Source: Curvularia clavata
Lineage: Eukaryota
Reading direction: 5' to 3'
Assembly: GCA_023920165.1 (NCBI GenBank)
Contig: CP089274.1
Span: 2,728,001 to 2,792,000 of the forward strand
Length of the DNA stretch: 64,000 bases
Part shown: piece after piece, positions 13,201-56,457 of the stretch
Position numbering within the stretch: the stretch's first letter is position 1
Layout: each line of letters opens with the position of its first letter
Made by a program: the position numbers and the translations under genes
The notes under the pieces: model-generated
The model's input: the letters and a program-made list of their open reading frames with translations, nothing else
The model's database searches: none
Told to the model about the DNA's origin: nothing

Positions 13201-16200
13201 GTGGGGCAATCTCTGACTCGATGCTCAGTGTGGGGAAGTTGTTCATCAGTTTGGATATCACGCTTCCCATCTTCTTGTTGTGAACCATGTCTCCGATCTC
13301 GGCCGCATCCATATCCCTCAACGCCTGTATAGAGGGATATTTGTGGTCGAGAGCTCTCAGGACCGGCTGAGGAAGGTCGTACTGATGCAGAGGGTGTTGG
13401 AAAGACCAACATCGGTGCTCAATGGATTGGCAAAGACTCAAAAGTACCAAACATTGGTAACCCCAGCGCCTGTTAAGCGCTATCATGAACAATGCACGAG
13501 CGATACGTGCAGCATTTTGGGTAATGTAGTTGGTATCGGAGACGAGAGTAAAGTCTTCTAGGCGTGCCCTAGAAATGTGTGCTTGTAGCAAATAATTTGT
13601 TTTGCCGTGTGAGGTAGCGTACCCGTCTTTGACTTCGGTTATAACGTGACCCTGCTCTTTGAGTGCTGATAATTCCTTCTCTTCGCTCTCTCGTGATTGC
13701 ACCTGGTCGAATTCGCCACTCATGCTAACCATAGCTAGAGCATCTGCATCTGTACTGCGAGGTCGCATCATAGCGTTGAATATCTCGATACTGGACTGTT
13801 GTACATAGTATTGACTAGCGATGCGGCCAACGTCTTTGGCTCGCAAATCCTCAGTAGTCTCGTTGAAGATGATCATTTGGCTTCTCTGCAAAGTTCGTGC
13901 CGCGTCGATGATGAGTTTGCGCCTTCGTCCGACAAGTTGAGGGTCATCGCGTATTTCCGACCATTCGATACCGTACATCAGTGGGCTCTTTTGCATGCGC
14001 ACGAAGAGATACGAATACCCAAGCCAAGTAACAGCCTCAGAGACCGTAGTAACTGTCCCCAAAGATATCTCGGCATTGAGATTATCAATAAGTCGTGTAG
14101 AGAAACGTGACTCTATAGGCTGCTGCTCAGTCACAGCGCGCATGTAGTGGTCGAGCCTATCATGTGTGGTACAGATGAAACCGATACCACTGTCCTGGAA
14201 CTGGGGACGACCAGCACGTCCAAAGATTTGCAAAACATCAAGGATGCCAAGGTCCGTGAACTTGCCCTCTTGCGCATTGTAAACCTGAGTTCCTTTGATG
14301 AGGACTGCTGCAGCAGGCAAATTGACACCCCAGGCCAGTGTAGCCGTACAGCAGAGAACTTTAAGAACACCTTCCGCGAAGAGACGCTCGATCAGATTTC
14401 TGTCAGAGCGAGGCATGCCGGCATGGTGAGTACCCATGCCTTTGCCCAGCAACTCTCTTAATTCTCTGCCCTTTGATTGTTTCATGTCGCGCACAGCATT
14501 CTCGTACCGAGGATGATCTTGCGGGTCAAAGAGATCGGTGCATTGTTCTTCCATAGCCATCTCATACAGCCTTCTAGCTGTTTTTACGGTGTCCTTCCTC
14601 GAATGCACGAAAACCATGATTTGATGCCCAAGTTTGAGCATCTCGACAACCTTGTCAAATGCGACCTTCTCCAGATTCTCGCGTGACTTTGCAGTACCGG
14701 GCTTTCCCTTCGCGCCGATAAAATGTTGTTCCAGTGGGACTGGACGGAACGAGGCATCGAAGTAGAACAATCCGGCCATCTTGTTGACATGAAGGAAGTC
14801 GGCAACATCGACATAGTTGGGCAGTGTAGCAGAGAGACCAACGATCCGAATGAGTGATTGTGTACTTTCGACTTGTCGCTGGGTTCGCGCCACCAGGCTT
14901 TCAAGCACAGCGCCACGCTCGTCATGTAGCATGTGAACTTCGTCTATGATAAGCAGTCGAACCTTCTGAACAAGCTCAGTGTCACCAGTGCTCTTCCTTG
15001 TAACGACATCCCACTTCTCGGGAGTGGTGACGATGATTTGAGTGTCGAGAATTTCAGCCTTGGTCAGGTGCATATCACCCGTAAGTTCTCGCGCTTTGAT
15101 GCCCAACCATGCGAGACGCTTCCCAAGTTTCTCCGTGACTTCGGCAGCCAGTGCCTTCATAGGCGCTACGTAAATTATTTTGAAGTCTTCTTTCATAGCC
15201 ACGAAATCAGTTGCTTCAGGTTGGTCAATCGGGTTTGGTACGACATTCTTTGCCACGGTATTGAGAATTGTAAGCATTGCTGCATCCGTCTTACCAGCAC
15301 CAGTAGGAGCACATATAAGCATATTTTCGCTTGTCTTATATGCAACAGGATACACCAGACTTTGCATACGATTGAGGGTCTTATAGCCCTTGAAGGTGCG
15401 TTGACAAAGGCCGTCCAATTCTTGGATCTCGAGGAGTCGCCGACCCGCCCCGATAGTGCCTACAGGCACGGCTGGGATCTCGTACTCTTCGTATAGGTTG
15501 TTATCACGGTGGACCGTGTTTGGGGGCAACGCGTACTTCTTGCCATAAGCCGAGAGCTTGTTGCCTGCATCGTGAGCTTTGAACACATGAGGATATTGAG
15601 GCCCGGTGCGGTCCATGGCAGGTGCCAGTGAAGCATTCTTGTGCTCCCAATCTGCACGCCGCAGTGCGTCTTCACGCTCGGCACGAGTCTGCAAGCGGCT
15701 CATAACATCGTTGCCATGAGGACCTGCTGATTCGCGCAGAGATCGCAACAAGTCTTTGCGATGGGAAATGAGATCGGCTACAAGGTCAAGCTCTCCAAAT
15801 CCTACAATATCTGAGAGCATCATCTGCAATTCTTCATCTGTTCCGAGTAAGCGGGAGGCATTCCAAAGCTGTTTACCCCAAGACCAACCATTGCTATCGC
15901 TAGATAGAATAGCGGATATCTGCTCCTTCAGCATCTCTGCATCCAGACCAGAGCTACCGCGAGCAACCTCACCGCACTTTGCAGTCAGCCAGCGTGCGTC
16001 GTAGGTGTTACTCGAGGCAGGCACTTGCGCAAACTGTTCCGCGTGATCGCTACTGTATTCTTCTTCATATTCGTCATTGATGATGTCCCAGATGTCGTCT
16101 CCACTAGCAGTTCCGGAAAAGTCGCCATCGTCGTCAAAGCTGATATCATGACCATATGGGGGTGTTTTTTCACTTTCAGTGGCGGGCAGATTCAATTCGG

Positions 16201-16270
16201 CGATGGCTTTGCGCATAGCCTGAAGCTGTTCGAGCCACTGTACTTGAGCCTCTTCCATAGCGAGCGACAT
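10235..16270 (-). CDS. SLH1: Ski2-like tandem helicase Slh1/Rqt2 (ASCC3/Mug81 orthologue)
   Basis: Two helicase cassettes (APTGAGKT/DEVH and SPTGSGKT/DEIH; QIFGRAGRPQF, QMLGRAGRPQF), each followed by a Sec63-like region; ~2000 aa. One small in-frame intron is likely near 15.84-15.89 kb. Confidence 0.93.
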   Translation of the reverse strand: MSLAMEEAQVQWLEQLQAMRKAIAELNLPATESEKTPPYGHDISFDDDGDFSGTASGDDIWDIINDEYEEEYSSDHAEQFAQVPASSNTYDARWLTAKCGEVARGSSGLDAEMLKEQISAILSSDSNGWSWGKQLWNASRLLGTDEELQMMLSDIVGFGELDLVADLISHRKDLLRSLRESAGPHGNDVMSRLQTRAEREDALRRADWEHKNASLAPAMDRTGPQYPHVFKAHDAGNKLSAYGKKYALPPNTVHRDNNLYEEYEIPAVPVGTIGAGRRLLEIQELDGLCQRTFKGYKTLNRMQSLVYPVAYKTSENMLICAPTGAGKTDAAMLTILNTVAKNVVPNPIDQPEATDFVAMKEDFKIIYVAPMKALAAEVTEKLGKRLAWLGIKARELTGDMHLTKAEILDTQIIVTTPEKWDVVTRKSTGDTELVQKVRLLIIDEVHMLHDERGAVLESLVARTQRQVESTQSLIRIVGLSATLPNYVDVADFLHVNKMAGLFYFDASFRPVPLEQHFIGAKGKPGTAKSRENLEKVAFDKVVEMLKLGHQIMVFVHSRKDTVKTARRLYEMAMEEQCTDLFDPQDHPRYENAVRDMKQSKGRELRELLGKGMGTHHAGMPRSDRNLIERLFAEGVLKVLCCTATLAWGVNLPAAAVLIKGTQVYNAQEGKFTDLGILDVLQIFGRAGRPQFQDSGIGFICTTHDRLDHYMRAVTEQQPIESRFSTRLIDNLNAEISLGTVTTVSEAVTWLGYSYLFVRMQKSPLMYGIEWSEIRDDPQLVGRRRKLIIDAARTLQRSQMIIFNETTEDLRAKDVGRIASQYYVQQSSIEIFNAMMRPRSTDADALAMVSMSGEFDQVQSRESEEKELSALKEQGHVITEVKDGYATSHGKTNYLLQAHISRARLEDFTLVSDTNYITQNAARIARALFMIALNRRWGYQCLVLLSLCQSIEHRCWSFQHPLHQYDLPQPVLRALDHKYPSIQALRDMDAAEIGDMVHNKKMGSVISKLMNNFPTLSIESEIAPLNRDVLRIRLFLTPDFVWNDRHHGTSESFWIWVENSETSEIFHHEFFILSRKKLYDDHELDFTIPLSDPLPTQVYVRAVSDRWLGAETVHPISFQHLIRPDTESVYTDLLNLQPLPISALKNPLLEEVYGQRFQYFNPMQSQIFHCLYHTSANVLLGSPTGSGKTVAAELAMWWAFREKPGSKVVYIAPMKALVRERVQDWGKRLAGPMGLKLVELTGDNTPDTRTIRDADIIITTPEKWDGISRSWQTRGYVRQVSLVIIDEIHLLGSDRGPILEIIVSRMNYIASQKKDGSIRLLGMSTACANASDLGNWLGVKEGLFNFRHSVRPVPLEIFIDGFPEQRGFCPLMQSMNRPTFLAIKAHSPEKPVIVFVASRRQTRLTARDLINFCGMEDNPRRFLHMSEEDLALNLDRVHDESLREALSFGIGLHHAGLVESDRSLSEELFANNKIQILIATSTLAWGVNLPAHLVVVKGTQFFDAKTEAYKDMDLTDVLQMLGRAGRPQFDDSGIARIFTQDAKKEFYKHFLHTGFPVESSLHKVLDNHLGAEISAGTIATKQDALDYLTWTFFFRRLHKNPSFYGLEISAEEHNTIAAQSMANDYMVELVETSLQELNESSCAVVEPTGEVDSTPLGKIMSYYYLSHKTIRFLVQNVKRNATFAEALAWISHATEYDELPVRHNEDLINAELSKALPISADDFGLPMWDPHVKAFLLLQAHFSRIDLPISDYVGDQNSVLDQSIRIVQATIDVLTELGYLSSCQTVISILQAIKSARWPTDGPLSIFPGVDVDKEKKRLDHPKAKPKTLIEATSTAEADLERAGKFAGVPHGGLKRFIEPLSRLPRLELRLGQVNAVTLEFRATRQNLARMQHGGVRIYAPRYPKPQTEGFFAIMSYSSTDEIVALKRVNWPDLSRTGGAGRVKRGKEATGNAARSVLQTSVKVTLPPEAQGKMLDISVHSDSYPGMSWDIRSVEIPEAPAVDAYGKGKEQK

Positions 16271-16588
16271 GTGCAAAGCTGGTCCCAGCTAACGGTGGCT
16301 GATGGTATGGATTGAGGAGGGTAGTTGCCTCTGATTCACGGCTTGGCAAAATGATGAGGCTGTGGAGTAGTCGCCCGCGGCATGCCCCGCCCTCACGCAC
16401 TAGCGTCATGACATAAGCAGCGTCACCCTGTTACTTGGCCGTACAGCGCGCCGCAAGAGTCGCATCCCAGGCATCGCAGTTTGGGTACATCTTATCACTC
16501 AGCGCCAGAGACACTAAACCTTCTCTAGAAGACTCACTTATAACGCCGCACATCAGCCCTTGCCAACACCCCAAGAGAAGCCGCCACC

Positions 16589-17689: not shown

Positions 17690-20600
17690 TTAATTAAAAA
17701 CCTCGGCTACATAACGTCGACGGTCCAGGCTCCTGAACCACTCTGTTGAACTTTCCAGATTATCTTTTCCAGCGTCTTTCCGCGCGATTTTGATGAATAC
17801 ATCCTTCACCGCTTCGGACATTCTACTCCCACCACACACAAACACGGAGGCACCTTGCTCCCATAGTTCCAGAAATTCCTTTTTCTCAGCCCAAACCCTG
17901 TCCTGAACGTATTTGCATCCACCCGCATCTATTGCCTCTAGCGTTTTACTGTAGGCGCGTCTTACGCGTACAATGCCCAAATTCTCAAGGTCGTCGAGCT
18001 CTTTCCTGTAGAGGTCATCATCCTGGCCACGACAACCAAAGAACAAGAGAGCCGGTGCTAAAGTTTTGCCTGCCTTCTGCTGTAATGCGCGTTCTTGTAA
18101 AAAGCCACGGAAAGGCGCCAGGCCTGATCCAGACGCAATCATGATGATGGGGTAAGCTCCTGGGTCTTGAGGCAGATGAAACGCAGGGTTCGAACGTCGC
18201 ACTGAAACGCGCACCACAGCACCTGGCGAAAGATCATTGAGATGGTTAGATGCGACTCCGAGGAAAGAGCCGTGTCCCGTCCATGACGGACCGTTCACGA
18301 CTGACCATGTCAGTGTAGCGTGAGACGGATTCCAGCCTGGAGCTGATGATATGGAGTACGTTCGAGGACGGAGGGGCGGTAGCATCTCCAGAAATGTTTC
18401 CACGGATAGTGGGATAGAGTCATAGACTTCCAGCAAGTCAAGGACCGACTGTTGTTTGCCACCCTTGTTACTCAACTCCTCATCTGCCAGTTTAAGCAAT
18501 GACTGTTTAGCGGATTCATCAGTTGCAGCAGCAGCGAGCTTTTTGATGTTCTAGATATTGTTAGTTAGTTTCTCTTGAGTATCAATGTCCCGGACCAACA
18601 ACTCACTCTGGATGAAGCAGGTTGGGAAAGCTCGACGTATGCGCCAAAAAGGTCTGCAACCGAAATTGGTGTTGATGTAGGAAGCTGCGTAGCCCCTGTC
18701 GACTCGATGATCAGAACGTTGTCCCAAGCTAAATGAAAACGAGCCAGAGCGCGCTGTACGTTAGACAAGGGGTTCAATGGTAGAACTGCTAAGTAGTCGC
18801 CAGCTCTATACGATACGTCCTGAGGCAATCTCAATTCAATGTGGGACTTTCGAGCCGGGAAAACGGGAGGGGTGAGCTCAAAGCGTTCCGTGACAGTAGC
18901 TTCTATGAACTCTTTGCGCTGGGTGTACGGTTGCTGGAAGGAAATCCTGAGTCCAGATTCCAACGGCGTAGAAGATTCTGATGACAGTGGGGAAAGACCA
19001 AGTTGAGGCCACAATGTCTCCTCCTCCCAGTTTTCGAATACCGAGAACGGATCGCTTGTGGCAACGTTGACAGCTCCACGAGGCGCAACTCTATTTCCTC
19101 CTCGCTGCTCTAAAACTTCGTCGATCAGAGTGGGGATCTTGTGAAACGTTGCAGGCCAATCTTGGTGCCCTAAATCAAGTCAGCTATATATTCTCTTCTG
19201 GTTTGATCCAACGTACCACATCCAAAAACGGCATACGACACCCCTTCTAACGGCCTTCCAGTAAGCGAATTGAGCCAGTCCATGAACTCTGTTGCATTAT
19301 CCGTAGGCTGGCCATCGTATGTCGCTGTAATGATGACAACTAGCCCACTTGAGGGGAAGTCATCTTTGGCTGAATCTAAAGTGCGTATTGGATGCACTTC
19401 GAATCCACATTTTGCGCAGTCGTTCGCGAGAACATTCGACAAAGCCTCACAAGTACCGCTGTTTGATCCATAGAATATGGAGACGCTCTTGTACTTTCCT
19501 TGAATCGTGATGGCCTTCTTCATCAACGGTTTTTTCTTCTCTGTCCTGGTGATAGCTTGATTTGTCGAGAGATCAGACTCGGTCCACAACTGCGGGGCTC
19601 TTCTGGATTGTCTCAGTGTTGCATAGATCTTGAAGTCTTGAGGTTTGATAGTCAATGACTCCTTGACTCGAAGATCGTAAGACGGATCAGCAGGCGAAAA
19701 ATCAAATCTTTGGAGCAGTGCAGCTATAACCTGAGGCGAGTCAATAGTGCTATAATATGACGATAGAACGAGAGACAAGACTGACCAGCAATGCCTCCTG
19801 CCAAGCAAACGCTCGCCCAATACACGCTCGCTTCCCATTTCCAAAGGGCTTCCATGAGTTTGGAGGCAATTTCTTGAATTCTTCATCCAGCATCCTCTCT
19901 GGCTTCCACTCATTGGCATCGGGCCCGTAGACTGTGGTATCGCAATGTACGGCCTGGAGGAGAACATTGAGAGGCTCTCCTTTTTTGACAGCGAATTTCC
20001 CGCCTATCACGTCGTCTTTCAATGCACCTACCGTGAAAGCCGGTGCAGTCGGCATAAGCCTGAGTGTCTCTCTAAGCATCGCGTTTACGTACTTCAGCTG
20101 GGGTAAATGATCGACGGTCAGCTTTTCCATGCCAACAATGTCATCGACTTCTTGCTGAGCTCTCGCCAATGCTGAAGGATATTTGAGCATGTAGTAGAAA
20201 ACGAATGATAGTAGGCCTGACGTAGTCTCGTGGCCAGCGACGAGAAAAGTAATCAGGTTGTCCACGATGGATGTGTCGCTCAACTTTGATCCTGTCTTGG
20301 GATCCGTTTGGTTGATCAGAGTGTCCAGAAGATCATTGCCGTCTGTTGGGTTCTGACGTCGCTGTTCTACCAGCTCTTGACTCAGCTGTCTCATTACTTT
20401 GATGGCGTGTTTGTTCTTTTTTTTCGCGCCCAAACGTAGATTGTTGAATATCTCAGGCAACCCAGATCGCTTGTCAGCTTCATGCAGCCATTGGTTCATG
20501 CTATCAACGAAGGGATGCAATGATTGGTCTCGATAAAAGCTGTTGAATCGGTGGTTCATTGCGCAAAGAGCAATTGTGTCCAACGTAAGGCGTGTGAAAT

Positions 20601-21200
20601 CCTCGGTGATTTCGATGGGATAGTTGGGGCCATATCGACTCCTTCTCTAGCCATTAGCGATTAGCTATATAGATCTGATCAATACTTACCATTTCAGGCA
20701 CAGTTGTTGCGCGATATCAGTCATCTGGTCGAACATCCCTTTGATCTTTATTGGCCCAAAAACTGGCATCAATATTCTGTGCGCAACGTCCCAGTTTTGC
20801 TCGCCTTCATGGGCTGTGAAAAGGCCATCATGTACTCCCGATCTTAGCAGTTCGACTCCTGAGGTGACAATCTTGCAGAAGCGTCTTTCATCACATATTT
20901 CATTCAAGAGTTGCACGTCACCAATAAATATTTGCTTCTGTCCCGCGATGGTTATTTGAAAGATAGGCCCTACACCCGTTTCATCAATCGCTTGCTTGTT
21001 CATAATCTCTTAATGCTACTACGTACCGTATTTTTGAGACATATGAACCAATGATTTCAGAGCAGCTTCAGGTTCAAGGTCGAGAATATTACCGACAATA
21101 GGAAGGGCTGGCGTTTCGGTCAGTACTATTTCACAAGGGCAGCAAGATCAAACACACCACTTGGCCCCGGGATGGGTTGTAAGAGAGTTTTCGATGGCAT
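17690..21200 (-). CDS. Self-sufficient cytochrome P450/NADPH-P450 reductase fusion (CYP505 family, P450foxy-like)
   Basis: Multi-exon. P450 motifs AGHETT, ETLR, PERM and heme [10 protein letters not shown]; flavodoxin YGSNSGT and TATYDG; FAD/NADPH motifs [26 protein letters not shown]. Confidence 0.93.
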
Positions 21201-22094
21201 GCTGGCCAACGGTTGTGAGGGTTATTCTTGATGATATTGTGGGCCGCGATAGGTGTCTGCTTTTGAGACGAAGGATAAGTTGCATGAGCTTTGTGATAGA
21301 TGATCTTTCGTACACTACTTTTTATAGATAACAACTAGTGTAATTTAACCCTTTTGATAGCCTAGCATTAATCTGGGTATTCGTCGGCTTACGGGGCTGA
21401 GTTCTGAATGCTCTCGGGATTTCGGAGGTCTTGGCAAATCCGGCTTGACCGCATTGGTTTCACCACCCTGATTCACAAGTGCTAACGCAGTTCAAATTGA
21501 AGTTCTCTTGCTGCATTTGCAATTCAACCCTAATGCAGCTAGTCAGGCATTACGTGTTCACCTCCTTTTGCTCAACGCCCCTTGCGTGTACGTTGATAGC
21601 ATGACTTCAGACAAGTTGCACAACGAATTGTATCCCCGAGTGACTAGGCCTGTTTAACGTCCATTCGTCTGTTCCTGCAGATACGACTGAAACAGCACTA
21701 AAAAAAGCTTGCCGAGACATCCGGTAACAGTACGAGAAGATGATGGTCAATCATCTTCCTTGTATGTGAGAAGGCCCGCGGTAGCAACGAAGATAAATAG
21801 CTCAGCTTGCCCAAGCTTCAAGTTCAACACACTGTGCATTTTCGACCATCCATCACCGTTTCTTATCTCTGCATATCTAAGAAGCATCAATATAAAGAAT
21901 AAATACATCATTCAGACTTGGGAAGAATACTACCGAGTGTTCCTACTTGTATGATCGGTATTTGGCGCGTTTGCACTATCTGGAAGTTACAGGAATGATA
22001 TGTATGTAACTGGCTACTAGAATCCTTCGCAATCTAATCCACTGAACGTTGAAAGACTCATCATACCAAAGAAGACATAGGGTGCAACAATCGT

Positions 22095-23217
22095 ATGACA
22101 CATGATCCCAGTGTAACTTTGGATGCACACGAATTCAATTCTGCGATGGAATCTATTCCACGTCTGGAGTATTCACTGCGCACGCGCAAATTAAGAATTG
22201 GAATTTTCTGGGGTCTTATCTTCGTTGACTCTGTAGCATTACCTGTTCTCTTGTACTTTGTATTGTGGTATGGGACCGATCTGGATCATAACACTGGTAA
22301 GTACTAGCTCTTTTTCATCGTTGTGGTTTTGTACTGACGCTGTGAATGCAGTTTTCGCAATCGTAACAGCTCTTCTGGGTGGTACAGGAATCATGGAATA
22401 CTGTCAGCGGTTTTGGCGCCTTTGCCACAAAAATTCCACATGTCGAATTCTTGGTGCGAGCAGGTTCTCGGTGAGTGTGCTTTGAGTTGGGTACCTCCTT
22501 TGATACCCTTCCCACCTAACGGATCGATAGTGCGACTTTCTCCAGTGGAACCTGACAGTCATCTTCGCTGCAATCATAGCAGAGCTTGTTGTCGGCACCT
22601 TGCCTGCCGAACCTATGGTTCGCCTGTTAGCACTCCCGTTACCTACATTTCTAGCTATCTTCGGGCTGGAACTAAGCTTATTAGAGCTCGGTTACATATA
22701 TCGATTACCCAGTCCTTTTCGCATATCTTCCGTAACTCGAGGACAGACCATACGCCCATCCGTATATTTCATCGTAGAAGATATTGTCGCTGTAGATGGA
22801 GATGGAGGGACGGCCTTCAGGGCACGTCTCAATCAAAGGTACGAGGCAAGCCCGTACTTCAGGCAGATGCTTCACCGGTTGTCACTCTTTTGGGCACTAC
22901 CAGCAATAGTGGTGGCTGCAGCAACCGGATGTGTAGTATCTCTGGTGGATAGAGACATTGCTTATATTGTGAGTACTATTTACCTTCCACAACATCTTTT
23001 CTACCTAAATGCATGCAGCCCAAGCTCCATGCTCCTTCACCCACCCGATGAGCCCTACCATGTTTTGTCGCTAACGAGAAAATGAATCTATTAGTTAGGC
23101 TGGTTTGTGCCATTTACGTGGGCTGGCATATGGGCACTCGTTACGATTCGATGGGTTCAGCGAGACTTGGAAATCGAGCAGATCCTCTGGAATCAACACA
23201 GAGCCCCTTTTAGGTAA
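22095..23217 (+). CDS. Multi-pass integral membrane protein of unknown function
   Basis: Hydrophobic exons (LRIGIFWGLIFVDSVALP; EDIVAVDGDGGTAFR.RL..RYEASP.FR.ML; GWFVPFTWAG) separated by canonical introns. Start codon uncertain. Confidence 0.75.
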
Positions 23218-23408
23218 TGGAAATACAATTACAAAGGCAATTTATTTGGATATGCTTTCATAAACCTTGCCATGATGTGTGCTATCTATGATAGAAGACG
23301 TGATTGTACCGAAAAGTGAGCCGAACATGTATTTCTCGGAAGCGCATCTTGGAGTACAAAGCTGTGAGATGAGAGTCAGGTGAAAGAGACTATCATACTT
23401 ATGTATAC

Positions 23409-25875
23409 CTACGTCCGTTGGTAGAGGCTGAGGACGATATCACCCTTGCTCTTGATAACTTTCCAAACCTCAAGATTGTTGGCTTGCAGGGTGTTACCAG
23501 TGACTACAATGGCGTCGCAGAGAAGATATGTATGGCATGGATCGTTGACGAGGTACGACTCAGAGGCACCAAGCACGCGCTGAATCTTGTATGATTCCTG
23601 CGGGACGCCCAGGCTTGCGAGGTAGGTCTGCACCACGCGCGGATGCTCGGCGGCGATGCGGACCGGCTTGTCAGCGGTCCACGAGTGGGGGTCAATTTGC
23701 TGACCCTGGCGACTAATGAGGGCGAGCGAAATGTCGGTTTCTGGTGCAGAGATGATGGGCTGGGAGGCCGTGGGGTAGTTGTCCATGATGACGTTGTAAG
23801 TGATTGTGCCGTCAAGCATGCCCTGAGCAAGGAGGTCTGGCATGTCCTTTGGCCTGGCTGAGACGAAGTGGACGTTGACGCCCTCGCCAAAGGCCTTTGA
23901 GAATTTGGCGGCGTCGACGACCTCATAACTGACGCGCAAGCAGCGGCCCCCGCGGCGGATCAACTTCACCCCCAAATGCGACAGCAAGAACTTATCCGTC
24001 CGGTCCTCGTACTTGTCGACGGTGACGCCAATCGCCTTGGACCTCGCCGGTGTGACGGTGCGGGCAGTGATAGTGTCATTGTCGACTGGCTCTGACCGGG
24101 TGCGTGAGCGATCATGCGCAGCGAGGCGCTCGTACAATGCCCGGTATCGCGGCGTGAGGCTGAGCGTGTCGTCAGCAAGCACGCTGCGAGCATGCAGGCC
24201 GTATGGCTCGTTCGGCGCCACCATCTCGTGCTCGTGGAACGGGCGGCCCGCAAGGTGCGCGCGCAGGAGGCTGTTGAGTTGCGTCCACTTGTCGAGAATA
24301 TTTCCTTTCACTGCGCTGCCGCCTGCCCGCCACATGTCCTTGTCAAACTCCTCCTGGCCCTTTGCGTCCGGATTCTCACGCCGCTTGATACGCATACAGT
24401 CTTGGTTGATCTCGGACCACATGGTACGGCCCGTTGGGTCGAGCATGATGCATCCATCCTGCACCTCGAGCCCGATCTGGTGGAGATAGTGCTGGATGGT
24501 GAAGAAGATCCGTATCGTCCAGTCGACGGATGCCTCAACATCTTGCACGCCGTGCACCAGCTCCTCAGGCACACACTTGTCACCAAACGGCTTGGCGCGT
24601 GCTGTCAGGTAGTCCTTGTAGAAGGCGTCCTTCCCCACCGACGCTTCCATGAGGTGGTAGAATGGGTGGGTTGCGGGATTGACGCCCTTGTATGTGTGGT
24701 TCGGGTTCCGCCAGTCGAAGCGCACATATGGTCCACGCCTATACTGGCCCGTTGGCAGTGTAACACCCGAGTGATTGACAATGTCAAAGAAGGAATGCTT
24801 GTCTGTTCCCAGGCAAAGCTCCTTGTACACTGTCTCGATCTGCGTTATCTCGGTGCTGTGTGCCCAGATGAGCCCATGCGCGTTCAGGCCCTTATAAGTG
24901 TGGCTAATTCCCGCCCGATGGAGCATCTCAAGGAAAAGGCGCGAACCCGCCGCTCGGATGGCGCTTAGACCGGTAATCTCCGCCGTCGATTGCTTGCTGT
25001 GTGAATATATCGTCGGTTTGAGGAAGACAAGGACTTGGTTGTCGAAGTGCCGGGTCAACTGTGTTTCGACTTTGTAGATCTGCTTCGACTCTCCTTCAAC
25101 GACCAGACGAAGTCGCACTGGCGCATCCTTGTCATGCAGTTTGTCGTAGTGGTTTACAAGTGCATGTACGAGGCCTGGGTCACGCGAGCACTGGCTACGA
25201 ACGTCTTCAGGTGTGAAGATAGACGTTTCCCCACACTCGATAGCGATGATCTCTTCCAACCGTTTTGCGTAGTCCACACCGGGTATCACTGCCCGACGAT
25301 TTGCCAAGGAAGCCACATCGTTGGGGGTAAGTGTGCGCAAGGCAAGCCTGGAGAAGAGCGCGAGGACTTCAGTGTTGTGAGCGAGAGAAATAATGTCAGA
25401 CACTGTTTCCTCGACGCTCCTTTTTCCAGTATCTATGACTGGCAGGCCAAAGAATGCTGCTAGTTCCTAACTGTCTATCAGTCTCATTCGAAAAGAGCAA
25501 CAAATACCAACGACATACAAGAAATCGCGCACGGAAGTAGAAGAGGCTCTTTTCGGACTCCCACTTGTCTGTGCTTGGCCGGTTCGCGAGCCTTGCTTGA
25601 AGAGTGGCGAGGTCGGCATCCAGAATGACTCGGACAATCCTGCGGTGAACTCCATCTTGGTCAGTGTAAGATGTGGGGAGGGGAGCACGGTCGTCGTCAG
25701 CAAGCTGTAACGTGAGTTTGTCGAAGCCCCTCACTACAAGGGTATCTTCGAGTGTGGCATCTTCATCTCCACGTGCATAGACAACTTGACCGGCAGCTCT
25801 GAGGGCGGGGACAAGAGTAGATTTTCCAGTTGCGTCGTTGCCGTGGAGAACTATAGTATAGGCCGACCCAGACAT
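23409..25875 (-). CDS. cns3-like: Cns3-like fusion: P-loop nucleoside/nucleotide kinase + SAICAR-synthetase-like domain + ATP-phosphoribosyltransferase (HisG), ~804 aa
   Basis: Exon 1 25875-25519 has the P-loop HGNDATGKST; intron 25518-25467. Exon 2 has PurC-like motifs (EGESKQIY, GLEVQDGC, SEINQDCMRI, FDKDMWR) and HisG motifs (RPKDMP, GASESY, DAIVVTGNTLQANNL). Architecture and sequence match my recollection of Cordyceps militaris Cns3. Confidence 0.9.
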
Positions 25876-26105
25876 GGTAGGCAAAGATGAGGTGGGCAAA
25901 CTTGACCGCGCTGCAATCAGAAATCTTTAAAGAGAAGCGACGAGGTCTGTATGCGCCTGTTGGGAGAAGGATTAAGAGGGTTCCAGTGTCTAATTTATAG
26001 AAAATCAAGCATAGTTTCATGATTTCCAAGCCCTCTCATTCGGTCCTTTTCAGGTTTATATCCCTCAAACCGTAGGGTCACACTGGAGAGAATCTTTCCT
26101 TTTTC

Positions 26106-26760
26106 ATGATGGAGCAACTTGCTCTTGATAGAACAATCATTCAATTCACTTCAAGGAGCCGAGGTTTCCTAATCGAGTGCTTTGCCTCGTTTCTACACAC
26201 AGCTTCTCTTCTACGCCTTAGCGCCATGGTCAAAGAAGCAATTCAAAAACAACAGGATGTACTACATCCAACGCTCCTTAAGCTGTAGCTGCTATGGTTG
26301 AATCTTCTGAAAGGCACGCAAGCTAAACCTGGCAAGGCAGCTTTCATCCAAAGGCCACGCAAGCTCCATCTACCTAAGAGGCCTTCATTCAAGTTTACGC
26401 GCCCAGACTTTGACGTGATAGTCACGTCTCTGATGAACACTCTACAAGCTGAAGCGGTCAGGATAACCCTCAGTTCGAAGTTAATGGGTTTAGTTGCAGC
26501 GGAAAAGCGGGTAAGGGTGCGGGGAGGTAGGCCGAGATAGTTGCTTGGTGTGAAAATGGCTCTAGAATGCATACCTAGTACGGGCCGTTTTAGCAAGCCC
26601 TGGTGGAACCCCACAATAGCCTGGCATGTCGAGCTGATACAAATTAACAAGCACATGCACATAGCGAATTAGCGCGTGAAGAAAGGAAATACATTCTCCA
26701 CTGGCGAAACTCAAGCAAAGCAGTTGCCGCTAACACTTCAACGTCAAAATATGCCGCGAT
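26106..26760 (+). mobile_element. Possible degenerate LINE (Tad1-like) ORF2 fragment, endonuclease end/linker region
   Basis: One frame continues through three TAG stops (~26288, 26540, 26672). It reads FTSRSRGFLIECFAS...FKFTRPDFD...SKPWWNP, resembling the IDLxFAS / FxKADW / PWW motifs between the LINE endonuclease and RT. Motif impression only. Confidence 0.35.
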
Positions 26761-27159
26761 GATCTTTCCCAGAAGAATGATTAAAGTTCATTGGCATATG
26801 CCACTAATCGATGGAACTACAGTAATACTCCGTGTGGAGAGACCAATTACTATGAGTAATAGTGTGTAACATTTGCCTCTGGTGGGCTTGGTTCATGGAC
26901 CAGTTCCGGACAAATAGGTCAGAACCCGAGCGTGGGATCAAAACCAAACCAGCAAGCCCTGACAATGCATACAGGCGTGAGACTCCCATGTCGAGCCGTC
27001 GAACAGATGCCTACTCGAAGCACAGCCCCTATCTGGTATCTAACTAAATATCACTTGAAATTTCTCAACTTATCTTCCTCTCTTTCCCGGACTGCGCAAA
27101 TAACTACATTAATCATCCTACCTCACTTACTTTAGTCGACACATATTGGCCGAGCAAGA

Positions 27160-28194
27160 ATGTCATCTCCTATCAGTGCCGGAGTCTTCCAGACACACAT
27201 ACTCTCTGGAGACGATTCAATTTTGATCCGAGATGAGATACACGGAGAAATGTTGGTTCATGAACCAGTCCTTGTGGAGCTTCTCCAAAGCCCAGAGGTA
27301 CAGCGACTGCGAGGAATCTGCCAATACGGAGTCACGTCTGTCCTGGGCCTGACACCAAGAGTTACGCGCCTCGAGCATTCGGTTGGGGCAATGATGGTGG
27401 TGCGAAGAGTTGGCGGCACAGTTGAGGAACAAATCGCTGGCCTTCTACATGACATCTCCCACACCGTCCTCAGCCATGACGTCGATTACGCTCTTTCCAA
27501 GCTTGGAGAGGAAAGCTACCACGAAATACACAAAGAACGCTATCTTGAGATGACTGAGCTTCCGGAGATCCTCACTAGACATCAGATCGATCGAAAGGTT
27601 CTTGACGAAGATCTATTTCCTCTAGTAGAGATGCCATCGCCTCACCTTTGTGCCGATCGCCTCGACTATGCTTTACGCGACGGTATTAACTTCGGCAAAC
27701 TTGCAATCGACGACGCAAGAAGAGTTGTCGGCTCATTAAAGGCGTTCCCCAATCCAATGGCACCTGATCGATTGCTGGTGCTAGATGATCCACAAGTAGC
27801 ACTGATCCTTGCTCGCGCATATATCACTACCGAAAAAGACTTCATGTCAAACCCCGCCATCGTTGACATGTCTGAGCGTACGGGCCGGGTTATAGGCGAA
27901 CTAGTGAAGGCGGGCTCTGTAGATGAAACTGCTTTGTGGAAAATGTCCGACACTGATTTCTGGGCCTTGTTGCGCCAATCAGCGAGCCCTGAGCAGCTTC
28001 GTGTCATTGAGCGGCTAGAGAGTGAAGGAATCCCAGAGGAGAAGGGACTCCGACGACCAAAAGGTACCAAGGTTCGCACACTCGATCCGGATGTTTGGGA
28101 AGGGGGAGAAAAGCGGCCCGATCCATTGTCGACATTGTTACCAGAGTGGGCGTCTGAGAGAACGCAATACATTCGTAGTCGTAGCCAGGACTAA
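27160..28194 (+). CDS. cns2-like: Cns2-like HD-domain metal-dependent phosphohydrolase
   Basis: QRLRGICQ.G, TRLEHSVG, LLHDISH..LSH and ADRLDY motifs; 344 aa, intronless; closely resembles C. militaris Cns2 as I recall it. Confidence 0.9.
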   Translation: MSSPISAGVFQTHILSGDDSILIRDEIHGEMLVHEPVLVELLQSPEVQRLRGICQYGVTSVLGLTPRVTRLEHSVGAMMVVRRVGGTVEEQIAGLLHDISHTVLSHDVDYALSKLGEESYHEIHKERYLEMTELPEILTRHQIDRKVLDEDLFPLVEMPSPHLCADRLDYALRDGINFGKLAIDDARRVVGSLKAFPNPMAPDRLLVLDDPQVALILARAYITTEKDFMSNPAIVDMSERTGRVIGELVKAGSVDETALWKMSDTDFWALLRQSASPEQLRVIERLESEGIPEEKGLRRPKGTKVRTLDPDVWEGGEKRPDPLSTLLPEWASERTQYIRSRSQD

Positions 28195-30324
28195 TGACCA
28201 TTCCCGTACCTGCCGCGCACAGTCATGGTTGTCTAGTAACACGGCACGGACCATTCCTGGAGGGTCGTCCCGCGTGCCCGCCTCCACATCCACAAGCCGG
28301 TGCAGCTGCATGCGCTAGCTCTACCTATGTACCGTGTTGCCTTGCCCATATATATAATAACACCATCCTTCGGAATATGACGCTAGACTCGGGCATTTAG
28401 TGCACTTTCCGGCTTATGTCTATAGAGCCAAGCAATAAGTACCAGCCGAGGTACATAAGTCGCTCCTTTATTCACCAGTCGTATTTCGTAACTAGATCAC
28501 GCCGATTCAGGAAGGGGAGGCGCATCTGCTGATCACACTCATGGTTTCAATAAGACTGAAGGTCGCAAATAGTTCCATGTGCAAGAAAAACGTGAACAAC
28601 ATGCGTGCATACAGGATATGCCCCGTCGCATGTCAGTCAAATCTCACGCTAAGGTACAGTCGTCCGAAATCAGATCGCCTATGTTAGGCGACGAAGTTTC
28701 CCGGCGCCATTGACTTACCGAACGCCGCTGTTTACTCATCACATACCAGTAGTTATGTATGCTATGTCAACTTCGGCTAGTATGCCTATGGAACTTGCGG
28801 ACGTGTCCGCTGCGTGGTGCAGGGTCGATCGGCCCTTTCAATTGTGCGGTCCGCGTCACCACTGAGCCCAACAGTCCTTCTGTGGGCTAGATACGCCACG
28901 TCATGCAACTCGAGTCAGTTCTTGTCTGCTTACTCCGTACATAGTATTCTATACGCCTTACACCTTAAGAAGGGTCTGTCCTTGGAAGACATGAGTCGTG
29001 TGCTGCAGTCCGATGCAGCCCTTGTTAAATTGCTAGATTTCGTGACTAGAGTAAGTAGCGCGAACCGTGTCTTGGGTACAGCTGACTATCCTCACCGTTT
29101 TGAAGTCTTTTCTCCTCGCTTTCATTCGTCAGTGCCTTCTACATACGTCCCTGCGGATCGCTTCATCGGGAGAGCCTTCTACATGGGGCGAAACGTCCTC
29201 CCCTCGCCAAGCCTGTTGCGTACCCGTGCTCTGACTGTGATGCGTCTCACCGAGTAATGCCCGGAGAATTTGGAGAGTATACATGACCACTGCTGTTCAT
29301 GTGGTCGCAATAACTGAGTTGATCGGTGTATATTGATTCTCGCAAGCGTCGTATATAGAAACTTGTACGACACCACGGTGCGTAGTGTGGCACGTCCGCG
29401 GGCTAATATGCAGACCAACTTCATTGTTCTCAGGTCCAGCTGTCAGCAAAAGAAACAGGCGACCTCTCAAGCCGGGAATTCTACAAAAGAGGTGATAGCT
29501 CAGGGTTACATGTCATCATAGGCGTTGCATCTAGCGTATAGGATCTCACTGTTGTAGGCCCACATGGCCATTTGATTCGTGCTTTCTTAATTACCGCACT
29601 CCACTTAATAACTTGCCGAACAGTACCAAACTGGATACTACGCCCAAACTCTTCTTCTTTCACACTGCTGTGCGGTGGACCAGATCTGCCGAGCCACGAC
29701 ACCAATGCGTTCGGAGCGAATCATTTTTGACACCAGCATTCACATTGCGTCTCCGGAATGCATGGCTGCTTCACTTGAACTTAAAGAATTAGATTGAATA
29801 TATAATATTAGTCATTTTCAATGGTAACACTCCGAGGTGGATCCACTTTAGTATCCGTAAGTGTTCGGTATTCTTGCCCTTCCGTGGCACCGTTGAGCCG
29901 TGAGGCCGGCGGAGCGATTGATTCTGGATATGGACGCTTTGTGTTTTGTCTGTGGGGCATTTTCGCTCCGCTTGTTGATCTAGACGGGTCTTATTAGACC
30001 TCTGTATTAACACAACTTGCTGTATTTTCGCTTCGAGAGCTACTAAGGTGCGACTGACCAGACTAGTAGCACTCAGTATCATTTGTTCTCAAAGCCCATT
30101 TATATGCATTAAGCGATTCAATTTTGAGAAGGTTATCGTATTAGATACTTCATAAGTGACTTTTTTCCCGGTTTGAAAGTACTAAATATAGCGTTCGCGC
30201 CTATTTCCAGCCAGCGTTTTAGACAAATTAATAATCCTAAAAGAACCACAAAATATGCAATTGGATGTGCCTCTGTGCATACATAAAACTGAAACGAATT
30301 GCACATAATGTTTGCCTGAGAGAT

Positions 30325-32268
30325 TTATACACCGGAATCATCTTGCTCAATATCTGCGCTCTCTTGGAAGCTGGCCCAAGTACTGCATCCGTCTCTCACC
30401 TGATCTGAGTCGGTCAGGTTCGCAATGCTATCATACTGTTCCACGAATTGTAGAGCAAAGCCCTCTGAAGTGTGCCAGCCGATGTGGCAATGCATGAGCC
30501 AGGCTCCGGGATTGTCAGTTTCAAAGGCGAGTACAAGGTATCCAGAGGCAGGTAGCATTGCCGTATCTCGTCTGGGGGGATTATCCAGTTTTAATGTTAT
30601 GTCGGACGAGTAGCTGCCAGATCCCTGCGCCAGAACGAAGAAATCGTGTCCGTGAAGGTGTATAGGATGTGGAACAGCTAGCGTAGTCTCGATGACTATG
30701 TATACCCATTCTCCGGCATCGGGCAACTCGATGACAGCGTTTGAGTTTGCCCATGATGTCTCGCCATCGAGGATCTGCAACAGTGTTGGGTCTGTCCAAT
30801 TCACCACCATGGTTGTACTGTTCAGATACCATCGGAAGAGACCATCGCTATTGAAGCCAACAGTCGCAGCCTCAGCACTCGTACTGTCGGAATCTGAGAC
30901 CGTTTTGGAGATGTAGGGAACAAGATTATCTGTCTCATCGCCACAGCTGTCCGTATAACTGTATGCTAACGTCGAGGGCGTAGAGGGCGAAGAACCATAG
31001 TAGACGATACCGCGAATGTCGTCTGTGTTGTCATTGTCTGGAACCATTTGTTAGATCAATAGGGTGACTAGTCTCAGAGCTTCACTAACCAGAGCATGCA
31101 GATTGAGGAATGGCACGCATCCAGAAGTTTTCAGCAGTTGATGCTTGATCGGCTGTGACAATAATCTGTGGACTGTGAGCTCGTTCCCGCCAACTCACGT
31201 CAACTGAGTTATAACTTACGTCGTAACGTTGTCCCATTCCGATATCCAAGACCGTCGTGCTGTACGGCTCAATTGGAACCAAGTCAGATGCGATCACAGT
31301 CATGGTGTGATTATCAATCATGAATTTGAAATGTGTATCAACAGCACCATTTACTAGACGTATCCTGTATGATGTGCCTGAAGTGAAAGATGTGTTGTAT
31401 CGGTAGCCGCCATCTTCGTACGTGTTCGTGCCGTTGATCAAAGCATTATCGAGCGTAGGTGGCCCGCTCGTCTGAGCAGAGAGGTAAAGCTCATCTACTG
31501 TCTATATAACATCGTCAACATGCGCTCAAAGCCCGCGTTATATCAAAGACTTGAGAATACTCACCTGATGGTCCCAATCGTTGAGGAACAGCATTCCCAA
31601 ATCCTCATCGTAATCTGCAGTCGCGGGTCCATTTATGATGATGCCACCAAGGATGCCTTGCCAAGCCTGAAGTGCAAAATGAGAGTGGTACCAAGTGCTG
31701 CCATACTGCGTCGCTCGCCACGTGTACGTTACGGAGCTTCCTGGAGCAGTCGGACACTGGGTAATAGATGAGACTCCATCCTGATCGTTTGTACCGTTTT
31801 GTCGAATACCGTGCCAATGGATGCTAGTGCCGTTCTGGGAGGTCTCGAGGTTGTTTGTTACATGTACGACAACCGTATCGCCCCAGTCTGCAAACAGAGT
31901 TGGACCTGGAATAGTTCCATTCACGGCCATTGCTGACCGAGAGACTCCATCAGGTGCGACAGTCACATCTGTCAACTCAAGCCAGTATTCGCGCGTTACT
32001 CCAGTGTCGGGGACGACTAGATGATCTTGTGATTAGAGTTCTATCTCCACATTCTGTGTACGAATAACCTACAAGATGTATAATCTGTATCAATTGAATA
32101 ATCACACCATGTCGAACGGGAGGTCGCAGTATTGCCAGAGCAAGCTGCTCGTTTATCAAGTTGGTAGCCGTGCGAATGACGGTCATGTTTATGGGAGTTG
32201 TGGTGTGAATTGATAGCCAAAACATGCGCAAATAGCAAACTGACATTGGAGAGATGTAAGAAGCGCAT
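30325..32268 (-). CDS. Secreted laccase / multicopper oxidase (ascomycete AA1-type)
   Basis: All four Cu motifs (HWHG, WYHSH, HPIHLHGH, HCHIGWH); signal peptide and KR propeptide; C-terminal DSGV; several introns. Confidence 0.95.
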
Positions 32269-54859: not shown

Positions 54860-56457
54860 ATGGAAGACGCAGAAAAGGCCAAAGGCAAGACCAGCGTCTC
54901 CAGTGACAATGGCATCGACCTTGCCACCTACGAGACAGAGACAGGACTTCTGGCCCGACTACGAGCGCTGGAAGCGAGGCTGGATGCCAAACTGGGTGTT
55001 GAGGCTGAGGCCATCACCAGAAAACTTCCAGAGGACAAAGGCCATGTGCCGTGGCATCAGCAGCTCAACATGATTTTCATATGGGCCTCAGGCTCAATGA
55101 ACACGTCTTGTTTTGCGATTGGATTTTTGGGCTATGAACTGGGATTGAGTAAGCAATTCAATCCTATATACCATACAGATCATCAGGATATGAGAAGCTA
55201 ATAGTTACTGCGACGATAGCGCTCCGGCAGTCCATTTGCATCACCATCGCGGCGACTCTACTTGGAGGAGCATCAACAGGGTTCGCAGCTACATTTGGAC
55301 CACCGATGGGTCTTCGACAGATCTCGATTTCGCGATATTCGTTTGGCTGGTGGCCTACAAAGATCATTGCTGCGCTCAACACCATACAGCAAGTCGGCTG
55401 GGCAGCAGTCGCTTGTATCGCAGGTGGGCTGGCACTGACTGCCGTCGCGGATGGACACGTCTCGCTCGTCGTGGGCATCGTCATTATTGTCCTGGTATCG
55501 ACAGTCATCTCGTTTGTTGGGCTCCGCGCAGTCTTGTTTTACGAGCGCTACGCGTGGTTCATCTTCTTTGTGATTTTCCTCATTATCTTCGGCGAGACGG
55601 GGAAATACACAGATAACAGCACGAAGACGAGCTTACATGGTATAGACCTGGGTGGCGGGGTACTTACCTTGTTTGCAATCGTATACGGCAGTTCAGCGTC
55701 ATGGCAAGTCATTGCGTCGGATTACTACGTCCATTATCCCGTTGACGTGAGTCGATGGAAAGTCTTCTTCTTGACTACTATTGGCGTCGCGCTCCCCACT
55801 TCACTCGGCATGGCAGCTGGCACCGTCGTTGCCTTTGGCATGAACAACCGTCCTGACTGGAAAGAAGTCTATACAACCCAGGGGCTGGGTTTTCTTGTCC
55901 AGACTATACTATATCCGCGTGGATTTGCAAAGGTGATTCTCACTTTGCTTGTCCTTTCTGGTATCAACACCAACGTTATTTCCATGTATAGCGCTGCGAT
56001 ATCGTGCCAACAGTTTGCACGACCTCTCGCACGCATACCTCGCATTATTTGGGTACTACTATCTTCTGCATGCATTCTTGGTCTCGCGATCGGAGGCCGT
56101 GCAAAGTTGAGCGTGTACCTCCAGAATTTCCTGAGCCTTCTTGGATACTGGTGCACGCAGTACTTTGTTATCTTGTGCAGCGAGCACGTTATTTTCCGCG
56201 GCATGAACTTTGACAATTATGATTTAGATGCTTGGAACGATCCTGATCGTTTGCCATTAGGACTTGCTGCGGGATCTGCGTTTGGCATCGGCACTATTGC
56301 TTGGGTTATGGGTATGGTGCAGACATGGTTTGTGGGACCGCTTGGACGTTTGATTGGCGTTGGAGGTGGCGATATTGGAAATGAGTTCACGTTTGTCGTC
56401 ACAGCTCTCATCTATATTCCGGCAAGATACATGGAAAGGAAAATCATTGGGAGGTGA
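54860..56457 (+). CDS. NCS1-family purine-cytosine / vitamin B6 permease (Fcy2/Tpn1-like)
   Basis: FGP..GLRQ..ISRYSFG, DYYVHYP, N....YSAA and NFLSLLGYW motifs; many TM segments; intron at ~55148-55219. Confidence 0.9.

Follow-up and report, generated by a model that had tools for sequence, protein, structure and literature searches.

A transcribed cns2–cns3 gene pair without linked cns1 or cns4: a reduced or split variant of the fungal cordycepin/pentostatin cluster

Architecture of the locus

The 64-kb stretch of contig CP089274.1 analysed here, referred to throughout as the window, carries between positions 23409 and 28194 two divergently transcribed genes which correspond to cns3 and cns2 of the cordycepin/pentostatin (cns) cluster of Cordyceps militaris. 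The cns3-like gene lies on the minus strand (23409–25875) and encodes a protein of 804 residues; its ATG is placed at 25875 from the open reading frame (ORF) list and the predicted splice, and its coding sequence is interrupted by a single intron of 52 nt (25467–25518; GT..AG, phase 0), which was predicted and then seen spliced out in contigs. Exon 1 (25519–25875; 119 codons) supplies a P-loop kinase-like (NK) module; the P-loop Pfam matches to this exon are weak and under their cut-offs, although its translation shows the Walker A motif GNDATGKST at approximately 25819–25842. Exon 2 (23409–25466 with the stop codon, 23409–23411, and hence a coding part of 23412–25466) is a 685-codon ORF containing two further modules: mid-protein, a PurC-like domain (24306–25103), resembling phosphoribosylaminoimidazole-succinocarboxamide (SAICAR) synthetase and matching Pfam SAICAR_synt at 22.5 bits against a cut-off of 20; and, near the C-terminus, a HisG-like domain (ATP phosphoribosyltransferase, catalytic part; 23454–23855), matching Pfam HisG at 35.8 bits against a cut-off of 25.5. 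The three modules by which a Cns3 protein is recognised, kinase-like, PurC-like and HisG, are thus present in one chain.

Matches of exon 2 to more distant references are weaker. With NCBIfam models, the PurC-like domain scores 14.8 bits on TIGR00081 (purC; cut-off 189.9), and the HisG domain matches TIGR00070 (hisG) with an E-value of 5e-11, under the cut-off of that model. A sequence search of the PDB with exon 2 returned nothing, and a profile search gave weak HisG and PurC matches; the HisG profile aligns to the PDB HisG entry 5ub9, with retention of the phosphoribosyl pyrophosphate (PRPP)-binding loop D-x3-(S/T)-G-x-T-L-x-x-N.

The cns2-like gene (27160–28194, plus strand) is intronless and encodes an HD phosphohydrolase of 344 residues. 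Its Pfam HD score (21.6 bits) is slightly below the cut-off of 22, but the fold is backed by PDB matches to 2hek (E 2e-11), EF1143 and SAMHD1, in which the H...HD...D motif is aligned. The metal-binding residues expected of an HD enzyme (H73, H97-D98 and D166) are present and are invariant in 52 rows of the Cns2 clade. Between the two ATGs lies a shared intergenic region of 1284 bp (25876–27159), presumed to act as a bidirectional promoter; repeats and composition across 25.8–30.4 kb showed nothing of note. The first-pass annotation, made from the sequence of this stretch, had described a kinase–PurC-like–HisG fusion divergent from an HD phosphohydrolase, with both frames intact. The ORFs and the Pfam and PDB matches bear out the arrangement, with the intron as its sole omission, and the frames are indeed intact, with invariant residues kept and no stops in contig variants.

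Orthology of the two proteins

Searching with the protein encoded by cns3 exon 2 recovered 74 proteins at E ≤ 0.001. C. militaris Cns3 (CCM_04438; P0021), which carries the UniRef name bifunctional cordycepin biosynthesis protein, is 67% identical across 100% of the 685-residue query (E 0); other matches at 66–73% come from Boeremia, Pyrenochaeta, Xylaria, Emericellopsis, Aspergillus, Penicillium and Paramyrothecium, together with one basidiomycete, Mycena. Exon 1 also aligns with relatives. In an end-to-end alignment with 16 relatives (17 rows) the window protein keeps all invariant columns. Approximately 59 residues of the linker between the PurC-like and HisG modules are absent from it, as they are from P0024, P0032 and P0035; most of this linker is also absent from the homologue on L001, a close fungal metagenome contig, which is just 16 residues longer than the window protein.

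The HD protein has 632 relatives, among which C. militaris Cns2 (P0122) is 68% identical and the best named match, from Corynespora cassiicola, 76%. In a quick maximum-likelihood tree of 62 rows, for which the careful search was not completed, the family divides into a Cns2 clade (28 rows) and a paralogue clade (34 rows; Penicillium, Talaromyces, Aspergillus, Coccidioides and two Leotiomycetes), and the split has a Shimodaira–Hasegawa-like approximate likelihood-ratio test (SH-aLRT) support of 100. The window protein falls inside the Cns2 clade, alongside Pyrenochaeta, Corynespora and Boeremia. Across 52 rows of the Cns2 clade, 85 columns are fully invariant, and the window protein keeps all of them; it has a single private change at otherwise agreed columns (Y28H; other rows have up to 6). 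It is also the most divergent member of the clade, with a median identity of 71% (73–86% in the six other members checked) and the longest terminal branch (0.23, against a tree-wide median of 0.098). Taken together, the alignments and the tree identify both genes as true Cns3 and Cns2 orthologues, plain new members of known families; the earlier assignment of the pair is upheld by the 67% and 68% identities and by placement in the Cns2 clade.

Within the paralogue family, five Aspergillus records (P0195–P0199) are annotated as a Cns2 paralogue, HD domain at the N-terminus, fused to a genuine SAICAR synthase; the C-terminal PF01259 matches in the two scanned records have E-values of 2e-74 and 4e-73. 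This fusion may be the source of the wrong name ‘SAICAR synthase’ on C. militaris Cns2 and many HD proteins, and may reflect an HD–PurC neighbourhood in primary metabolism.

Some further observations concern the history and annotation of the pair. Third-position GC content (GC3) is 0.695 in cns3 exon 2 (23412–25466), against 0.46–0.60 in 15 other ORFs of the window; that of cns2 is 0.50 and that of cns3 exon 1 is 0.52. The Cns2-clade tree departs from the order of the fungal classes, and the window Cns3 is 69% identical to the Mycena protein. The high GC3, the class-discordant tree and the Mycena identity together hint at horizontal spread of the genes. An identical protein (P0075) occurs among the cns2 matches and none among those of cns3; hence the source annotation may lack the cns3 gene or model it wrongly.

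Transcription, splicing and selection

Twenty sequencing runs from 14 studies match the stretch, and the contigs of four (X1, X2, X11 and X13) were placed on 21000–31000. X13 is an oligo-dT RNA-Seq metatranscriptome and X11 a root metatranscriptome; that X1 and X2 are RNA is a guess, argued by their spliced contigs and gene-shaped cover. The cns3 intron is exactly skipped in contigs of three of the four runs (X1, X2 and X13), whilst X11 does not bridge the site. In all four, contig cover tracks the genes (approximately 22.3–25.95 kb and 27.1–28.35 kb), extending to 25950 on the cns3 side and beginning at 27103 on the cns2 side; a single contig of 1126 nt spans cns2 (27162–28287) without a joint. 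X11 has in addition a thin tail into 28.35–28.7 kb and cover at 30.0–30.7 kb, over the 3′ end of a laccase gene. The intervals 26.0–27.0 kb and 28.7–30.0 kb have no contig cover in the four runs, although contigs cannot show absence of transcription. Transcripts of this fungus appear in root and tick metatranscriptomes.

The contigs derive from other strains and differ from the window by 13 substitutions in cns3 and 4 in cns2, none of which creates a stop codon. Ten of the 13 cns3 variants are synonymous and three are not, where 24% synonymous changes would be expected at random (binomial p 8e-5). Comparison of cns3 with its L001 homologue (81% amino-acid and 77% nucleotide identity) gives a dN/dS of 0.088 over 804 codons, with 0.10 for the NK module, 0.06 for the PurC-like module and 0.12 for HisG; dS is 1.34, near saturation. 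The L001 contig stops before cns2, and its other neighbour of cns3 is an unrelated P450 gene; it has no synteny in common with the window. The cns2–cns3 pair is transcribed and correctly spliced, and cns3 is under purifying selection.

Absence of cns1 and cns4 from the window

Cns1 is here taken to be a Gfo/Idh/MocA protein, as in the first-pass annotation. Pfam scans covered 571 ORFs of the window in three sets. The first comprised 117 of the 126 ORFs of at least 100 residues (the nine omitted sit inside cns2 or cns3, and three of these were scanned separately). The second comprised 113 of the 120 ORFs of at least 35 residues in 21.0–23.6, 25.8–27.3 and 28.0–30.5 kb, with E-values up to 1; the seven omitted are the cns2 and cns3 frames themselves or were scanned in other sets. 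The third comprised 341 ORFs of 55–99 residues elsewhere in the window. None of the 571 matched GFO_IDH_MocA, ABC_tran or adh_short, which agrees with the earlier statement that the 64 kb hold no Gfo/Idh/MocA or ABC gene; near cns2 there was also no match to any further family of NAD(P)-dependent dehydrogenases, and no ABC membrane family was matched anywhere in the window. One review says of Cns1 only that it has an oxidoreductase/dehydrogenase domain (PMC8869658).

By the gene order of C. militaris, the place of cns1 would be the 2133-bp stretch that separates cns2 from the laccase gene (28195–30327). No gene is recognised there: the ORFs of at least 35 residues match no notable Pfam family and there are no repeats of note, in keeping with the earlier remark that the 2 kb beyond cns2 lack a convincing gene. 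A badly eroded cns1 relic could nevertheless lie within this stretch, which was scanned with Pfam families. No cns1 lies beside cns2 in the 64 kb, with nothing within 23 kb on one side or 36 kb on the other. Among the longer Cns2-like proteins, six matches were inspected as possible fused Cns1–Cns2 models, and none has an oxidoreductase.

Likewise, no cns4 ABC exporter lies beside cns3, the adjoining gene being that of an unclassified membrane protein. This multi-pass protein of unknown family (22095–23217, plus strand; start uncertain) is encoded convergently with cns3, the stop codons lying 191 bp apart. A 126-nt GT..AG intron (22969–23094) is joined in an X1 contig that continues into cns3; the gene is transcribed in X1 and X2, and its 3′ end overlaps or abuts that of cns3. 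It has no Pfam match, and the Atlas returned only unnamed Ascomycota clusters under 0.9. It occupies the position that cns4 has in C. militaris and is a candidate member of the locus only. A 59-nt GT..AG joint at 22626–22684, seen in one low-depth X2 contig, was rejected: it breaks the membrane-protein frame, and an X1 contig is unspliced there, which points to a minor or foreign form. What distinguishes the locus is that two of the four defining genes are absent within 64 kb, whilst the remainder are expressed and constrained.

The wider neighbourhood contains a self-sufficient cytochrome P450 fused to a flavodoxin/FAD/NAD reductase (P450-CPR; 17693–21009, minus strand), two genes from cns3; the laccase gene (30.3–32.0 kb) and an MFS transporter (44.5–46.1 kb), both recognised by Pfam, as is an FAD monooxygenase listed as an annotated neighbour; and a purine/cytosine-type permease (Transp_cyt_pur; 55153–56454, plus strand), which at 27 kb from cns2 is too distant to call linked. 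Elsewhere in the window, a SesA-domain ORF followed by a TPR-repeat ORF resembles an NLR-like, immune-type gene (6987–10126, plus strand); it adjoins a 2017-codon ORF for a Brr2/SNRNP200-type spliceosomal helicase (10238–16288, minus strand).

Relatives of the Cns3 modules and of Cns2

The family of the PurC-like domain is small: a search of 1.84 billion proteins gave 228 representatives at E ≤ 0.001. Thirteen PurC-like relatives of 1203–1337 residues carry further domains of histidine biosynthesis: a HisA-type domain in 12 of the 13, HisG and PRA-CH (HisI) in 11 each, and PRA-PH (HisE) in 10; several of these long relatives also begin with a kinase-like N-terminus. Since relatives fuse these domains, the PurC-like catalyst appears tied to an intermediate arising from HisG, HisE/I and HisA, the scheme that has been described for bacterial coformycin and pentostatin. 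The fusions support a pentostatin/coformycin-type, ring-forming role for the PurC-like domain, and the reading of Cns3 given in the first-pass annotation fits them.

In prokaryotes, an alignment search (A4) found 75 loci with a stand-alone PurC-like relative, whose neighbours were examined within 6 kb; the single protein P0234 as query had returned nothing, and alignment A3 was too diverse. A hidden Markov model of the kinase-like module detects it beside the PurC-like gene, or fused to it, in 17 of these 75 bacterial and archaeal loci (L026–L100), many of them from candidate-phyla bacteria and Myxococcales; the fungal HisG profile scores in 4. Fungal Cns3 patterns run against GTDB species-representative prokaryote genomes found nothing. 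Searching prokaryote genomes for Cns2 gave 20 homologues at 26–45% identity, and viral contigs gave none. No Gfo/Idh/MocA neighbour was found by Pfam in 18 of these loci (119 ORFs); the other two, L012 and L013, were omitted from that scan because their ORF layout resembles that of L007 and L010.

The published pathway

In C. militaris, cns3 is required for pentostatin (PMC8869658). As reviews summarise Xia et al. 2017, the kinase module of Cns3 produces 3′-AMP, Cns2 turns this into 2′-carbonyl-3′-deoxyadenosine, and Cns1 reduces the latter to cordycepin (PMC11188397, PMC8869658). Bacterial pentostatin makers use the HisG-like PenA and the SAICAR-synthetase-like PenC (PMC12648386). The early steps of coformycin and pentostatin formation resemble L-histidine biosynthesis, and the pen cluster includes PenF, an HD-domain 5′-monophosphatase of the companion (Ara-A) branch (PMC11592144). 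In characterised producers the cns genes are linked within approximately 10 kb (PMC12648386, PMC10710699), and antiSMASH misses the cns cluster (PMC13236867). Among papers and sections outside subscription journals and supplements, we found no description of cns2–cns3 loci without cns1.

A proposed role for the reduced pair

The locus is a real and active, reduced or split variant of the known cns cluster. Lacking the reductase, it cannot follow the published route to cordycepin; the same claim in the first-pass annotation therefore stands as far as the locus is concerned, though it need not extend to the organism. The locus probably makes a pentostatin-like enzyme blocker. We give about an even chance to the view that the genome has no Cns1 and that the pair works as a reduced module with a pentostatin-type inhibitor as its output. 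The product, the role of Cns2 and the lack of a cns1 elsewhere in the genome are inferred here.

Under the proposed scheme, the HisG module of Cns3 would couple ATP or dATP to PRPP, and ordinary cellular histidine enzymes (HisE/HisI/HisA activities) would process the product onward; these housekeeping activities would have to be used because fungal Cns3 is without those modules. The PurC-like module would then close the 1,3-diazepine ring. For the bacterial enzyme CofB, the chemistry of ring closure was reportedly described by Ren et al. 2020. An unlinked enzyme would presumably reduce the intermediate, and dephosphorylation would then yield an adenosine deaminase inhibitor of the pentostatin/coformycin type. 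Cns2, the co-transcribed HD enzyme, would strip phosphate from an adenosine-derived nucleotide; without its Cns1 partner it could not finish cordycepin, and it may either serve as a phosphatase for the Cns3 route or yield another adenosine derivative.

Several observations weigh against this scheme. No reductase for the 8-keto intermediate was found in the window by the Pfam scans. A Cns2-like HD gene occurs within 6 kb in none of the 75 prokaryote PurC-like loci, and a Cns3-like gene in none of the 20 prokaryote loci with a Cns2-like gene, so that the comparative data as they stand lend no support to a role for the HD protein in the diazepine route. Because prokaryote loci show no such partnership, the Cns2–Cns3 and Cns1–Cns2 pairings look like fungal inventions. 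The kinase-like module seems to belong with the PurC-like enzyme and not with Cns2, and the contrast of 17 of 75 with 0 of 75 calls into question the view that it chiefly feeds Cns2. The number of cns2 variants, one synonymous and three not, is too small to interpret (Fisher p 0.10 against cns3), and one variant comes from a contig of depth 3. Lastly, Cns1 and Cns2 are reported to bind tightly, with neither working alone (PMC11188397, PMC8869658). Since Cns2 is said not to function without Cns1, yet is conserved and expressed here, its retention hints at a Cns1 elsewhere.

This reported need of Cns2 for Cns1 is also the main argument for a split but complete cluster, in which cns1 and an exporter lie elsewhere and both cordycepin and pentostatin are made as in C. 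militaris and Aspergillus nidulans. We regard such a cluster as a real if lesser prospect. It would account for a Cns2 that is expressed and conserved at all family-invariant positions, and for the grouping of Cns2 and Cns3 with Pleosporales-type sequences at 73–82% identity, which suggests long maintenance; against it stand the tight linkage of the genes in all characterised producers, with nothing of the sort in this window, and the faster divergence of the window Cns2, whose branch is the longest of its clade. Were the pair instead a decaying remnant of a four-gene cluster with no product, as the first-pass annotation allowed, the loss of two of the four genes and the 2.1-kb stretch without a recognisable gene at the expected cns1 site would follow naturally. 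Silent, neutrally evolving genes, the outcome named there as telling against a functional pair, are not what we see: transcripts are spliced, correctly so in three of four runs, cns3 evolves at a dN/dS of 0.088 (0.09 rounded) with 10 of its 13 variants synonymous, frames are intact with no stops in the contigs of other strains, and catalytic motifs and invariant residues are kept. For these reasons decay is rejected, and we consider it barely credible.

It is improbable, in our estimate, that the pair makes a different purine or adenosine analogue, or acts under certain conditions in nucleotide salvage or signalling, rather than serving deaminase inhibition. Three observations lend this idea some substance: the nearest solved relatives of Cns2 are triphosphohydrolase-like HD proteins of the SAMHD1/EF1143 type, not 5′-nucleotidases; the HD paralogue clade is widespread in Eurotiomycetes and Leotiomycetes and includes the Aspergillus fusions with genuine SAICAR synthase; and the kinase-like module accompanies the PurC-like gene in prokaryote loci without a Cns2-like gene, for which reason the published hand-over of 3′-AMP from the kinase to Cns2 may not be the main job of that module. 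It is opposed by the 67% identity of Cns3 to a protein genetically tied to pentostatin and by the relatives that join the PurC-like domain to the complete HisG-to-HisA set, both of which point back to the diazepine route. Returning to the reduced inhibitor-making module, a stronger version, in which Cns2–Cns3 suffices as a pathway by itself and catalysis by Cns2 does not depend on Cns1, seems to us doubtful. Cns2 might then, for example, free a pentostatin/coformycin-type nucleoside from its phosphate or make a different 3′-modified adenosine. If that version were true, the pair would in many fungi have the production of a deaminase inhibitor as its central task, with cordycepin via Cns1 a later add-on.

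Pentostatin is used clinically and cordycepin has been much studied as a lead, and the fungal pathway to both is known from few producers only. A cns2–cns3 pair that is transcribed with neither cns1 nor cns4 would add to the fungi likely to produce deaminase inhibitors; it offers a natural experiment on the activity of Cns2 without Cns1 and helps to tell apart what each of the three Cns3 modules does. Should cns1 simply lie elsewhere, the locus is an ordinary split cluster.

Comparison with known systems

The related fungal clusters are cns1–cns4 of C. militaris (CCM_04436–04439), ck1–ck4 of Cordyceps kyushuensis and cns1–cns3 of A. nidulans. The window shares with C. militaris the same three-module Cns3 (67% identity), a Cns2 of the same clade (68%) and the adjacency of the two genes; it differs in having neither a cns1 oxidoreductase nor a cns4 ABC exporter in 64 kb, in a PurC–HisG linker shorter by about 59 residues, and in its host, which belongs to another fungal class, probably Dothideomycetes/Pleosporales by the best named matches. 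The paralogue HD clade, which includes some Leotiomycetes, has the fold family, length and metal motif of the Cns2-like protein and is 52–60% identical to it, but forms the separate clade described above (SH-aLRT 100).

Compared by their descriptions, bacterial PenA together with PenC/CofB likewise combine a HisG-like enzyme with a SAICAR-synthetase-like catalyst, and the pen cluster also has an HD phosphohydrolase, PenF, in the same locus; in the window, by contrast, a single protein unites the HisG-like and PurC-like parts with a kinase-like module, and the short-chain reductase (PenB/CofA) is absent. A parallel in domain order is provided by the long fusions of about 1200–1340 residues found in genomes and metagenomes, which join kinase-like, PurC-like, HisA, HisI, HisE and HisG domains. 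They have the kinase-like, PurC-like and HisG modules in the same order as Cns3, with 38–46% identity in the PurC-like domain, whereas fungal Cns3 is without the HisA, HisI and HisE modules and would have to borrow these activities from primary metabolism.

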